Notes: generated by a model from the sequence alone, not told the origin. A DNA stretch of 64,000 nucleotides from Candidatus Shapirobacteria bacterium (GCA_022837635.1 JALHFY010000001.1:23562-87561); one strand, 5' to 3'. Positions 48,424-55,842 are shown, counted from the first letter of the stretch. Program-made: numbers and translations.

Positions 48424-48498
48424 TCCCCCTTAGCTCAGTGGTAGAGCGCTCGCCTGTTAAGCGATTGGTCCTAAGTTCGAATCTTAGAGGGGGAGCCA
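48424..48498 (+). tRNA. tRNA-Asn (anticodon GTT), with an encoded CCA
   Basis: TCCCCCTTAGCTCAGTGGTAGAGC...CTGTTAA loop...GGTCCTAAGTTCGAATCTTAGAGGGGGAGCCA. Confidence 0.8.
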
Positions 48499-49959
48499 AC
48501 TTTGACGAGAGGCGTAAAAAGCTATCTTGTCAAACGGTTTTATCCAGTCATATCGGGCTTTTTTGCCCTTTAGCTCTAAGTTCTGAAGTGCCATCTTCAA
48601 AAGTAGCCGTTTTTCGTGGGCTTCAGAACTTTCAAAGACTTTTCCAGCGTTTTCAGCCAGCTTTAGCAGGTAAGATGAGGTTACATAGTATTCCTCGTCG
48701 GCAAATTGTAGCTTCTCAATTTTTTTATTGATTGTCTTCTGTTTTGCCCGATACTCTTTTCGTTTTTTCTCATAGTAGCTCTCAGTAATACTACCGTCTA
48801 TTTTGTCTTCCCAAGCCCGCTCAATGCGGTTCTCGTATTTCTTATACTCGGACTGATAGCGGTTGAGTAGACTTTGGTGAAACTCTGATTTGTCTTTGTG
48901 CGAGCTTTTAAGCGAATTGGCAATATCCTCAACAACATCAGGGGGCATTTGGAGCTTGTCAAACACGCTTACAAACTGTTTGGTTAAGTCGTCCTCTGTC
49001 AGCCACTCAGCCCCGTGTTTACCGTTGTATTGTGTGCAGTGGTAGTAGTGATAGACATTACCGCTTTTCTTTATCTTACGCTCAGGCGTAATCATACAAC
49101 CGCAGTCGGCACATCTGATTAAGCCCCTGTAAGGAAAAGCTAGACCCGCATACTTAAAGCGTTTTTTATTAAACCCTGCTTTTATATCCTGCACTTTGTC
49201 AAAAAGTTCCTCGTCAATCACTCTATCGTAGTTGTGCGGGTATTCTTGTCCGTCATAGAGCATTGTCCCGCAGTAAAAGGGGTTTTTGAGGATAAAATCA
49301 ATTTTGCCTTTGGAAAAGTCCAAGCCAAACACTTCTTTAACCTTATTTCTTACCTCAAGCATTGAGTAACTGCCTGTGGAATACCATTGATACATTTTCT
49401 CAACGATTTCTGCTTCTGGCTCGTCAACACCTATCCACTTTGAGCCGTCATCTCTGGTTATATTTTTGTAACCGTAGGGGGCTTTGCCAGGATACTCGTT
49501 TTTGCTTATTTTGAATTTGGCTGTATTGATAGCGTCTTCTTTGAGGCGGTTAAGATATTGCTTGGCAAGAAAAACCTTTAAGTCCCAATCCTGAATATCC
49601 CTGCCTACGCTGTCTTTGTTGATAACGAGGTGGTCATAAACAAAGTGAATTTCTTTGCCGTAATCAAGCCTTAGCTCGTCTATTTTTACGGCATCTCGGT
49701 AATTTCTGGTTATGCGGTCAACTCGGTAAGAGATAATAGCTTTGATGTCCTCATTTTGCTTTACAAAGTCAATCATCTCGTTAAACTTCTTTCTGATTTT
49801 ATAGTCGGCACTTTCGCTAAAAACAAATTCTCGGACTACCTCAAAATCTCTTTTGGTTGCGTAATCCCTTAGTTCGGGAAGTTGAATATCTTTAAGAGAT
49901 AATCCTTCTTTTTCCTGCCTGAGCGTTGATACTCTGGCTAATATAACTGCTTTGGTCAT
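48484..49959 (-). mobile_element. Large serine recombinase (integrase). Its 3' end overlaps tRNA-Asn by 15 nt
   Basis: Resolvase N-domain AVILARVSTLRQ..., recombinase domain, and zinc ribbon CADCGC...YHYYHC. Confidence 0.8.
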
Positions 49960-49962
49960 AAT

Positions 49963-50850
49963 TTATTTCTTCCTAAACTGCTTCCAATTTTTATCAACTC
50001 TTGTTCTATGGACTTTTTCAAGTCTATTCTGTTGCTCCAAAATTCTGGCATACGAACCTCTTATTAAGGCTTTATTGCCTGTTTTTTCAAAAAAATTAAA
50101 TAGCTCAAACCAATGGTTAAAATCTAACTGGCTCGGTTTTGAGTTAGTAGAAAAGCCTACTGTTCTTGCTAAATTAAGTATCGTTTGTTTCCCGAAGACA
50201 TCGGATAATCCTTCAATCACATTAGGCTTGAACTGATTGAAGGTGTAAACAATAAAGTCTTGATATTGACTTTTTGCCTCGTCTTTAATCAAAGGATTTT
50301 TTCTCTTGTTAATTTTTAGTAATACCGTCTCTACTTGCGGTTTTGGGGAAAAATCATCTCTGTTGAATTTATGGGAAATTTCCAATTCAAACCACGGTCT
50401 CAATAAAATAGCCATCTGACTATTTTTACTATCGTGGGGTTTGCCTATAAACTTTTTAGCGGCTTCGTTCTGAACAATAAGAAACGCATCGTCAGGTGGT
50501 TTTGGTGCTTGTGTTAATTTTTTTATAACATCTGAGGTGATATTGAAGGGTATATTAGAAAAAACTTTATAGGGATAACTTGGCAGGGAATAAGTTAAAA
50601 AATTGCCGTGTATTAAGTCTAAGGATTTATTACCCGTAAATTTTCGTGCTAATATCCTAAATAAGTTTTCGTCTATTTCAAAAGCAACTACCTTCCTACT
50701 TCTTTTTAGCAATTCTTCTGTGATAATTCCTTGACCTGCACCAATTTCATAAACAACATCATTAGTTGTTATAGCTGATTTTGCTATCAGATTGGCTATC
50801 AGAGCCTTATCTTTCAGAAAGTTTTGTGAGTAGGCAATTCTTTTTCTCAT
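49963..50850 (-). CDS. Erm-family rRNA adenine N6-methyltransferase
   Basis: YSQNFL, VYEIGAGQGIIT, FEID, YKVFSNIPFNITSDVIKKL, FSPKPQVETVLLKI. These correspond block by block to Erm(B)-type methylases. Confidence 0.65.
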   Translation of the reverse strand: MRKRIAYSQNFLKDKALIANLIAKSAITTNDVVYEIGAGQGIITEELLKRSRKVVAFEIDENLFRILARKFTGNKSLDLIHGNFLTYSLPSYPYKVFSNIPFNITSDVIKKLTQAPKPPDDAFLIVQNEAAKKFIGKPHDSKNSQMAILLRPWFELEISHKFNRDDFSPKPQVETVLLKINKRKNPLIKDEAKSQYQDFIVYTFNQFKPNVIEGLSDVFGKQTILNLARTVGFSTNSKPSQLDFNHWFELFNFFEKTGNKALIRGSYARILEQQNRLEKVHRTRVDKNWKQFRKK

Positions 50851-53822: not shown

Positions 53823-53894
53823 AGGTCATTACATCTTCAACTTTGTTTATCATATTTTATCAATTTTTGCTAAAATTTATAATTAGATTAGGCT

Positions 53895-55700
53895 ATGTTG
53901 AAAAAAATATCCTTAAAGTTTACTAGGGACAAATTCCTGAGCTGGGTTATCAAAATCTCAGTTATTGTCTGGCTAACTTGTATCCTCGGCGTCTTTGCGG
54001 TGATTGGTTATGTTGTTGGTATTAGAAAAGAATTGTTTGATAAAGCACCCGATGCGTTTATGTTTTTGCTTCTTGGCTTAATCCTATTAGGATGTTTAGC
54101 TTTTTTGGTTGGAGTAGTAAGTTTTACTGCACAACTTATAACCAAAAGGTCTCAAAAGAAGCAAAATGTTTTTATCTTTTTAATAAGGTTGTTTTTTATT
54201 CTTGCCATCTTACCTTTCTACCTATTGGTTTATATTATTAGACCCCTTGAGATTGTTAGGAGATTGAGACATCTTGGATTCAAGGAGTTGCTAAAATCAC
54301 TAAACCCTAAGTTTTTATTGAGTAAGGCTGTTGCCCTAATCTTGGTTGGAGCTATAGTCTTCCCCATTTGGATTGGCGGGTATGCGACTGTCGGTGCTTT
54401 AGTCGCTGGCCAACTCGGTTATATAACAGAGGATATAAACATTGTGGGAACGGGTTCAATGTATCCAACTTGGGAAAAGGGAAGCAAGGGCAAGAGCAAT
54501 AAAGAATTAGCAAAAGAGATAATTTCTACAGCTGGATTTTTGCCCTATCCTAACGGAATTGTCATAGGAGGGAAAAGGTATTTTGGACACACATTGGGAA
54601 GGGGCGACATAATTACTTGGGAAAATGATGCAACAAGGGAGCTAACGAGCAGAGATGGAGCTGAACCTGCAGGGTTACTAAAGAGAATTATCGGTTTGCC
54701 AGGAGATAAGATAGAACTCAGAGACGGCATTGTTTATCTCAATGAGGAGCAACAAAGGGAACCATACATAGCTAAGCCACGCTCAACATTTGGTGAAAAA
54801 TTCTTAAAAGAGTGCCAAGTAATTACTGTCCCTCAAGATGCGGTGTTTGCGATGGGAGACAATAGAAAAGGCAGTTCTGATTCAAGAGAAATTGGCTTTG
54901 CCCCAATTAAGGATATTACTCGTGTTCTTCCCTTTGAGAAACAAAAGGGCAAATTAGATAAAAACTGGCACGACACAACCAACGACTTAGATGACACGGC
55001 AAAACCAACAGTAGATAGAAATAGGTTTGTTGAGCTTCTCAATGAAAAACGCAAAGAAAATGGGGCGACCCCAGTAAAATATGAACCAAAGTTAGACATA
55101 TCGGCAAAGGCACGGGGTGAATTGCTCTTAAAACACAATTCAATTCAAGAACAGGCTTCTTATGATGTTGTTTCAAATGCAATGTCAAAGGCTGGTTATT
55201 GGAATAGCTATGTTTGGGAATGGTCGTTAGAGGGATACTATACAGCTGATGAGTTGATTGAAGATTATCTTGAAAGAGATTCAACTGATGCAAAGAATGT
55301 ATGGTTTGACAAAAAATTTGACGACATTGGTATTGGAGAAGTTCAAGGGAACCTGAATGGGTGCCCCACACAGCTTATTATTGTTCACGCAGCTGGATAT
55401 GTTCCACCCAACTATAAAAAGGAGGATATTGAATCTTGGAAAACAAGTCTTTCCCGATTAAGAGAGATACAACCAAGTTGGGCAAATCTTAAAAACAATT
55501 CCAATTTTTATCAAAACAATAAGAGTGATGTTGATAGAATCAACGAAATCATTTCTATAAGAATTGCCAACATTTCAACTATCGTAGCTAAAATGGAAGC
55601 TAACCAGTGGTTGGGTGCTACCGAACAAAGAATGATAGAACAAGACAAACCCTTATATGATGAGCAAGAAACAATAGCGACAAGATTAAATAGTCGCTAG
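53895..55700 (+). CDS. Three-part fusion protein: polytopic membrane domain, signal peptidase I (S26) and a CAP/SCP domain
   Basis: S26 boxes GTGSMYPTW and VFAMGDNRKGSSDSR. The C-terminal segment resembles the two CAP paralogues downstream. Confidence 0.6.
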   Translation: MLKKISLKFTRDKFLSWVIKISVIVWLTCILGVFAVIGYVVGIRKELFDKAPDAFMFLLLGLILLGCLAFLVGVVSFTAQLITKRSQKKQNVFIFLIRLFFILAILPFYLLVYIIRPLEIVRRLRHLGFKELLKSLNPKFLLSKAVALILVGAIVFPIWIGGYATVGALVAGQLGYITEDINIVGTGSMYPTWEKGSKGKSNKELAKEIISTAGFLPYPNGIVIGGKRYFGHTLGRGDIITWENDATRELTSRDGAEPAGLLKRIIGLPGDKIELRDGIVYLNEEQQREPYIAKPRSTFGEKFLKECQVITVPQDAVFAMGDNRKGSSDSREIGFAPIKDITRVLPFEKQKGKLDKNWHDTTNDLDDTAKPTVDRNRFVELLNEKRKENGATPVKYEPKLDISAKARGELLLKHNSIQEQASYDVVSNAMSKAGYWNSYVWEWSLEGYYTADELIEDYLERDSTDAKNVWFDKKFDDIGIGEVQGNLNGCPTQLIIVHAAGYVPPNYKKEDIESWKTSLSRLREIQPSWANLKNNSNFYQNNKSDVDRINEIISIRIANISTIVAKMEANQWLGATEQRMIEQDKPLYDEQETIATRLNSR

Positions 55701-55813
55701 GGCTAGTTTTGGTTGTTTTAGCCCTATTTCATCAAAGGCAATCTTGAGGTCGCTTAGGCTTATATCAAACTCTAGCTTGTGGTTGCAGAACAAGTCTTTT
55801 AGGGGGAGCAGTT

Positions 55814-55842
55814 AAAAAATCCCCAAGAATGGGGATTTTTTT
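55814..55842. terminator. Bidirectional rho-independent terminator aaaaaatcccc-aagaa-tggggattttttt
   Basis: Read directly. Confidence 0.7.

Follow-up and report, generated by a model that had tools for sequence, protein, structure and literature searches.

Site-specific integrative elements with replication or mobilization genes and resistance-type cargo are an already known kind of mobile DNA. The small integrative and mobilizable elements (IMEs) of Firmicutes, for example, combine an integrase with a rolling-circle initiator or relaxase of the Rep_trans/MobT type, lack a conjugation pore of their own, carry accessory cargo including resistance genes and accrete in tandem (PMC5704250). The initiators of such elements both replicate the excised form and act as relaxases, as in Tn916, ICEBs1 and many streptococcal IMEs, while IMEs with a serine recombinase have so far been described as disrupting protein genes that are dispensable (PMC5704250). 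Here, we describe a locus at a tRNA-Asn gene in 64,000 nucleotides of DNA from a Candidatus Shapirobacteria bacterium (GCA_022837635.1 JALHFY010000001.1:23562-87561; this whole stretch is called the window below), which very probably is a 7.3-kb site-specific integrative element, comparable to an integrative, replicative or mobilizable plasmid-like island, in a chromosome of the Microgenomates group of the candidate phyla radiation (CPR). It resembles the Firmicutes IMEs in being small and site-specific, in encoding a protein similar to rolling-circle replication (RCR) initiators, in the missing pore, in its accessory cargo and in the tandem accretion seen in its family. It differs from them in that its replication protein (Rep) has no sequence-level match to Rep_trans, its hosts belong to CPR and Dependentiae, its large serine recombinase aims at tRNA genes and its integrase gene appears to span the attachment site attP.

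In this last feature, the element most closely parallels, among published systems, the SSV-type tyrosine integrases of archaeal viruses and plasmids (PMC7253208), where the recombination site lies in the integrase open reading frame (ORF), a tRNA gene is the target and the gene is split on integration (PMC7253208, PMC8371274). The element of the window, however, uses serine catalysis in a bacterial host, and only about the last 38 codons would be detached; the catalytic and DNA-binding domains are left intact, and the integrated copy may therefore stay active. Among serine integrases, tRNA genes were listed as targets in 14 of 297 cases in 2020, as something 'not reported previously' and needing proof (PMC7192596). 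The tycheposons of Prochlorococcus (bioRxiv 10.1101/2020.12.28.424599) are likewise integrative elements of streamlined genomes that target tRNA genes, carry cargo and possess replication genes of their own, and a minority of them use large serine recombinases, but they mostly rely on tyrosine recombinases and on primase/helicase replication modules; no proteins common to tycheposons and the present element were detected in our analysis. As no description of the element family was found in the searchable literature, it is apparently undescribed, and its unusual features are a serine-integrase clade dedicated to tRNA genes, an att site that appears to lie inside the integrase gene, and a spread across candidate phyla with reduced genomes.

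The block, which has exact junctions, represents an insertion polymorphism at the 3' end of tRNA-Asn(gtt), a gene recognised by ARAGORN and by Rfam (68.6 bits). Based on the junctions observed between the window and a second copy of the element (L001, a 592,604-bp contig of GCA_964419005.1), the empty site was predicted beforehand as the tRNA-Asn gene up to GGGGGAGC, followed directly by AGTTAAAAAATCCCC…, and a look-up via the neighbouring Hsp20 protein retrieved exactly this attB, without the element, from two contigs (L107, 27 kb, and L110), whose flanks are 99.98% identical to those of the window and which represent the same host lineage. In both of them position 48496 is joined directly to 55810. 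At the near end, L001 and the window diverge up to 48488 and are identical from 48489 onward, and at the far end the identity with the independent element copy ends at 55810. Empty site and L001 junctions together thus delimit an element of 7,313 bp (48497-55809), bounded by the 8-bp core GGGGGAGC, the only 8 bp common to the att sites. The unoccupied tRNA-Asn gene ends in ...GGGGGAGCAG and does not encode CCA (L107:9477-9491, compared with window 48489-48498), whereas the occupied one does; the insertion provides the CCA end and restores the tRNA's 3' end.

These data allow an original prediction, made from the DNA of the window, to be judged. Its integrative mobile element at tRNA-Asn is borne out by the empty sites and by the identical copy in L001, its far boundary at about 7.3 kb agrees with the 7,313 bp of the empty-site comparison, and the proposed overlap of 15 nt between integrase gene and tRNA 3' end holds (ORF 48484-49959, tRNA to 48498). 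The comparison with strains lacking the insertion, which it had proposed, has supplied attL, attR and attB (L107, L110). An imperfect repeat of the tRNA end, placed at 55795-55810, could be confirmed, and both L001 and the empty site show it to mark the actual far boundary, but the common core measures only 8 bp. The strong bidirectional terminator thought to accompany that boundary exists as a hairpin (55814-55841), but it had to be discarded as a boundary feature of the element, since it is also present in the empty site and hence is host DNA. The gene order on the minus strand was recovered as listed (ORF calls, Pfam) and the listed genes are accurate, but the signal peptidase I gene on the plus strand (53895-55700), which is part of the element, had been left out, and the integrase gene spanning the attachment site had been missed as well.

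The DNA of L001 is 100% identical to the window over 48489-55810, while both of its flanks are unrelated to those of the window, the adjoining tRNA-Asn differs from the window tRNA-Asn at 20 positions and the flanking proteins are named Candidatus Levybacteria. This identical copy at a different tRNA-Asn gene means that the element moved very recently between two hosts with distinct tRNA-Asn genes. Independent Logan contigs (L002, L004) contain the same 100%-identical element (48489-55810), the exact methyltransferase protein encoded by it is indexed in 30 blocks of a public assembly collection, and in two further contigs (L111, L112) the same site in the same host is occupied by a different but related element. 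With a presence/absence polymorphism from which attB can be reconstructed, an integrase of its own at one end and the same element at an equivalent site elsewhere, there is strong support for reading the block as a mobile element. Next to the insertion site in the Levybacteria host lie an ABC-F ATPase gene and three glyoxalase/bleomycin-resistance-like genes (L001:12570-15292), which form, with the Erm-clade gene of the element, a local cluster of resistance-type genes. The features of the element are collected in Table 1.

Table 1. Features of the element and of its target, with positions counted from the first letter of the window
Feature	Position	Strand	Basis or remark
tRNA-Asn(gtt), integration target	48424..48498	+	ARAGORN, Rfam; bases from 48497 on (CA of CCA) supplied by the element after insertion
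Large serine integrase, integrated form, 491 aa	48484..49959	-	Pfam Resolvase, Recombinase, Zn_ribbon_recom; PHROG 95
attL core GGGGGAGC, crossover region; 3' strand of acceptor stem and discriminator	48489..48496	.	Window/L001 comparison, empty site
Erm-clade rRNA adenine N6-methyltransferase, 295 aa, RrnaAD	49963..50850	-	Pfam, NCBIfam, structure relatives, tree
Excisionase-family HTH_17 protein, 67 aa; stop overlaps erm start	50847..51050	-	Pfam HTH_17 9e-16; NCBIfam TIGR01764 61.7 vs 28.8
Rolling-circle initiator-like protein, 390 aa, gpII/Rep_trans-like; family signature gene	51034..52206	-	
SpoVG-like nucleic-acid-binding protein, 97 aa; overlaps rep start	52178..52471	-	Pfam SpoVG 32.4 vs 29.6
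Conserved small ORF, 55 aa	52452..52619	-	tblastn 48-87% identity, same position in related loci
Non-coding stretch, one of only two sizeable ones in the element, pyrimidine-rich on the gene strand	52620..52706	.	No significant repeat found
371-aa protein, winged-helix DNA-binding domain(s), first gene of the minus-strand operon	52707..53822	-	
601-aa membrane protein, signal peptidase I (S26) domain and weak YkwD/CAP-like region; second cargo	53895..55700	+	Pfam Peptidase_S26 5e-24; NCBIfam sigpep_I_bact 89 vs 47
Detached integrase C-terminal segment, 38 codons and stop	55686..55802	-	Reconstruction by joining the element ends
attR core GGGGGAGC	55802..55809	.	L001 comparison, empty site

The integrase possesses the complete set of large serine recombinase domains, namely a resolvase domain (PF00239) with the catalytic Ser in the motif RVSTLRQ, read directly from the sequence, a recombinase domain (PF07508) and a zinc ribbon (PF13408), all scoring above the Pfam cut-offs, and it matches PHROG 95 ('integrase') at 4e-62. 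Its C-terminus depends on the place of integration: the window integrase takes its final residue and its stop codon from the antisense strand of the host tRNA, and in L001 the frame extends nine codons further. The members of its 90% cluster (491, 499, 500, 522 and 523 aa) have C-termini varying by host context and diverge exactly after …ASRQxWL, that is, at the core. Joining the two ends of the element in silico reconstructs an attP containing …AAGTCTTTTAGGGGGAGCCAACTTTGACG… and a 528-aa integrase, the tail of which, LKDLFCNHKLEFDISLSDLKIAFDEIGLKQPKLALATI, is encoded at the opposite end of the inserted element. Across the family, related elements retain this tail peptide at their integrase-distal end (the Dependentiae version reads LVDMFRNxxIEFxISLSHIQTVF), and its first 31 codons differ from those of L111 by nine synonymous and no non-synonymous changes. 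The tail thus appears to be a coding sequence under purifying selection, and the circular form would encode the full-length enzyme; the attachment site would then lie inside the integrase gene, and integration would consequently detach a conserved tail of about 38 residues.

It is tempting to regard the split gene as a built-in state switch, in which the tail-bearing enzyme of about 528 aa, made from the circle, needs its tail for integration or for the control of stability, and the tail-less chromosomal form has a different directionality or activity. We put this forward as a tentative idea, with the odds rather against it. The 523-aa integrase of P0250, considered as proof of a circle, was rejected because it actually comes from a tandem array. 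In L091 (5100-17500), a single site is occupied by two related elements arranged in tandem; the integrase of the upstream one (523 aa) takes its tail from the arm of its neighbour, and the downstream element contains an Erm-like gene together with a peptide deformylase gene.

The element belongs to a widespread family. With the 390-aa protein as query, 1,925 homologues were detected (E ≤ 1e-5), and a scan of species-representative genomes resulted in 80 loci from Patescibacteria, Dependentiae/Babeliales, metagenome-assembled genomes labelled alphaproteobacterial, Peregrinibacteria, Gracilibacteria and Omnitrophota. Their conserved order runs from a winged-helix protein over a small ORF, SpoVG, Rep, an optional helix-turn-helix (HTH) protein and variable cargo to the serine integrase and an opposing tRNA gene. 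Of the 57 loci that have an integrase, at least 33 show its frame ending 12-66 nt into a tRNA gene; tRNAs for Asn, Asp, Arg, Glu, Gln, Pro and His serve as targets. Some of the loci without a detected tRNA are further cases of tRNA targeting, their tRNA-Asn being interrupted by a group I intron. Such introns, recently described in tRNA-Asn of Patescibacteria (PMC13011429), were found in the target genes of two loci (L011:15546-15794 and L091:17428-17623; Rfam RF00028, 105.5 and 68 bits), where they caused ARAGORN to miss the tRNA and where the integrase frame extends across the 3' exon and on into the intron.

Whether the methyltransferase belongs to the Erm enzymes or is a captured relative of KsgA was a choice which the original prediction had left between two alternatives, proposing profile searches and a tree with KsgA/RsmA and Erm clades to settle it. 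Both methods place the protein on the Erm side (NCBIfam, neighbour-joining tree). It reaches 235.6 bits with Erm23S_rRNA_broad (NF000499; cut-off 212) and 175.6 bits with the ksgA model (TIGR00755), narrowly above the cut-off of 171. In a calibration set, six known Erms obtained 234-285 bits on the Erm model and 129-150 on the ksgA model, while E. coli RsmA showed the opposite pattern (136 and 299, respectively). In the tree, with two KsgA sequences as the only outgroups, KsgA separated from the rest and the CPR sequences formed a clade in all of the 200 bootstraps; the CPR clade joined the Erm(42) group in 194 of them and KsgA in none. The best relatives of solved structure (ErmE, Erm38, ErmAM and ErmC') rank ahead of every KsgA/Dim1 entry. 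Judged by profiles and phylogeny, the methyltransferase is therefore a member of the Erm clade and not a KsgA. The nearest named genes, an IncC-plasmid Erm (WP_039110121, 36% identity) and Erm(42) (35%), align from end to end, C-terminal extension included (about 290-300 aa), but they are too divergent for inferring the same specificity or a donor-recipient relation; with the Erm(42)-specific model the protein scores 169 against a cut-off of 600.

Several observations identify the gene as cargo. It occupies the slot between the HTH gene and the integrase gene, where close relatives have DNA N6-adenine methylases or restriction-modification genes of type I/IIG/ISP; as erm is found in none of the 80 related loci and the contents of the slot vary, it is lineage-specific cargo. 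Its absence from element-free genomes of the same host argues against a housekeeping role. No leader peptide precedes it and its start codon overlaps the stop of the HTH gene, so that its expression should follow the element operon. A 5504-bp contig (L005) is a mosaic element: it shares the xis-erm-int block with the window at 100% identity, while its rep and spoVG are identical by only 87.6% and 79%, respectively, which implies modular recombination between element backbones. In L008 (1-4051), unrelated DNA with two LytTR-domain genes is attached to a piece of the element comprising the HTH gene, erm and the initial 123 nt of the integrase gene; the contig is a copy that underwent rearrangement or else a chimera of the assembly. 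In earlier surveys, erm-like hits obtained by BLAST in CPR genomes were counted, without addressing their mobility or testing the function of erm (PMC8651080; bioRxiv 10.64898/2026.07.13.738296).

A resistance function of the Erm-clade protein may be proposed. The gene could, however, confer no resistance and serve another modification of rRNA or nucleic acids, for example protection from ribosome-targeting toxins, or be an equivalent of the DNA methylases found in its slot. We consider such a role unlikely. In its favour, the slot contains DNA methylases and restriction-modification genes in relatives, the neighbouring HTH protein weakly resembles the MADS1 defence HTH (NCBIfam search), the profile scores lie between Erm and KsgA and other resistance-like methyltransferases of CPR gave no phenotype in E. 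coli. On the other hand, the protein passes the curated Erm cut-off, nests in Erm beside Erm(42), a named macrolide-lincosamide resistance enzyme, and its S-adenosylmethionine motif (EIGAGQG) and NIPF motif are intact. Moreover, methylation of DNA is not known from the RrnaAD family.

The nature of the 390-aa protein bears on the question of what kind of element this is. Neither the window protein nor 33 close homologues match Pfam, no sequence link to Rep_trans emerged from HMMER searches against PDB and Pfam or from hhalign comparisons of two alignments with pC221 RepD, and Foldseek against PDB gave no match. The plasmids of PLSDB contained no match to it either. While the window protein stays below the profile thresholds of Rep_trans (PF02486) and Phage_CRI (PF05144), a Gracilibacteria homologue (L088), 40% identical over its full length, passes the latter with 28.1 versus 21.7 bits, as the only homologue to do so. 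Phage_CRI is the catalytic domain of the gene II protein of filamentous phages. Based on this homologue, the 390-aa protein is probably a divergent rolling-circle initiator or relaxase. Within its family Y191 is invariant and Y181 nearly so.

A gpII-type initiator could also make single-stranded DNA for packaging, as in phiRSM, and the element would then be a filamentous-phage-like (inovirus-type) prophage or a phage satellite. The Phage_CRI match in L088, the way one small element combines an RCR initiator with a serine recombinase and with a tRNA gene as target, and the nucleic-acid binding of SpoVG-like proteins are in keeping with this, as is the integration of phiRSM phages into tRNA genes by means of a serine recombinase (PMC7192596). 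Nevertheless, we hold it to be quite improbable, given that none of the eight ORFs encodes a morphogenesis ATPase (pI/Zot), a coat-like small membrane protein or a secretin, that neither 50,697 INPHARED phage records nor IMG/VR contain a match to the 390-aa protein, and that the integrase is a large serine recombinase and not of the small phiRSM type. The last alternative, an ordinary piece of chromosome in which a housekeeping KsgA/RsmA happens to lie beside an integrase, could invoke the ksgA cut-off narrowly passed and the lack of a second RrnaAD gene within the 64-kb window, but has a negligible chance of being right, since the whole block is missing from genomes of the same host, an identical copy exists in another phylum-level lineage, and both the bootstraps and the reversed scores of E. 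coli RsmA speak against it.

For the integrative element, the following course of events can be proposed. The integrase would carry its attP inside the gene that encodes it, at 38 codons from the stop, and would recombine this site with tRNA-Asn at the end of the acceptor stem, with the crossover inside GGGGGAGC; the C-terminal tail would be detached and the chromosomal copy left with a shorter integrase, ending in residues from the antisense of the host tRNA. The role of directionality factor or regulator would likely fall to the HTH_17 protein. In the excised form, the gpII/Rep_trans-like protein would introduce a nick at an origin and start rolling-circle replication, or serve as a relaxase for transfer by way of a host or helper secretion system, and the SpoVG-like and winged-helix proteins would probably be accessory DNA binders. 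The Erm-clade methyltransferase and the signal peptidase fusion would be accessory cargo, the former most likely methylating 23S rRNA in the A2058 region, thereby protecting the ribosome from macrolides, lincosamides and streptogramin B, and being expressed constitutively with the element operon.

Some results should be set against this scheme. Scans for repeats and for promoters or terminators inside the element, looking for an origin or nick site, yielded nothing above chance; the non-coding stretch at 52620-52706 is a tentative candidate. No coupling protein, pore or capsid gene that could account for transfer is found among the genes of the element. A metagenome scan for the attP junction of an excised circle gave a single match (L115), a decayed relic without element genes. 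As for the cargo, the methyltransferase lies closer to the Erm/KsgA boundary than the clinical Erms, its ksgA score exceeding those of all six characterised Erms, its identity to the closest Erm with a name amounts to just 35-36%, and no erm-like gene of CPR has been tested for resistance (bioRxiv 10.64898/2026.07.13.738296). The relic itself (L115:73-200; JGI Ga0233420_10000804) consists of an attP-like junction in which a tail-coding arm is fused to the final ~45 nt of an integrase gene, with no element genes nearby and a tRNA-Asn gene 4.6 kb away.

Of the remaining genes, spoVG is conserved together with rep across the family and lies upstream of it in many loci, whereas the 371-aa protein has matches solely to winged-helix domains. 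The 601-aa gene is divergent from the operon, encodes N-terminal membrane segments and lies within the 100%-identical block. In the surroundings, the element is flanked by common housekeeping genes of the host (fmt, def, mreB, PBP2, dprA, topA). The GC skew of the host plus strand, 0.3-0.5 per kb, is unusually strong and uniform over positions 1-64000, even across minus-strand genes, and has its sole interruption within the element (48-54 kb), where it is about 0. A gene for a TrwB/VirD4-like coupling protein (45082-47250, minus strand, 722 aa; DUF87, TrwB_AAD_bind), considered as part of the element, was rejected as host DNA because it is also found beside the empty site; situated 1.2 kb from the tRNA, it could still matter for DNA transfer. 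Farther away, a cobalamin riboswitch match (14156-14276, plus strand) lies just over the Rfam gathering score (35.9 vs 31.5 bits).

Gene exchange in CPR/Patescibacteria and Dependentiae is little understood, and the element provides a concrete, precisely delimited and demonstrably mobile case. With regard to serine integrases at tRNA genes, for which proof was called for in 2020 (PMC7192596), a whole clade is now available with an empty site in hand, and its compact att sites, made up of a tRNA end and one arm, could serve as new integrase tools. The movement of an Erm-clade gene from one candidate phylum to another, with 100% identity, gives direct evidence of mobile resistance-type genes in CPR. 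From the position of the attachment site within the integrase gene one may surmise that the integration state controls the enzyme, a regulatory idea which is testable. If true, such a switch would be the bacterial serine-recombinase counterpart of the 'self-splitting' integrases of the archaeal SSV type, present across CPR, Dependentiae and other small-genome bacteria, and the promiscuous family could, as a side consequence, be a vehicle spreading functional Erm genes among uncultured bacteria.

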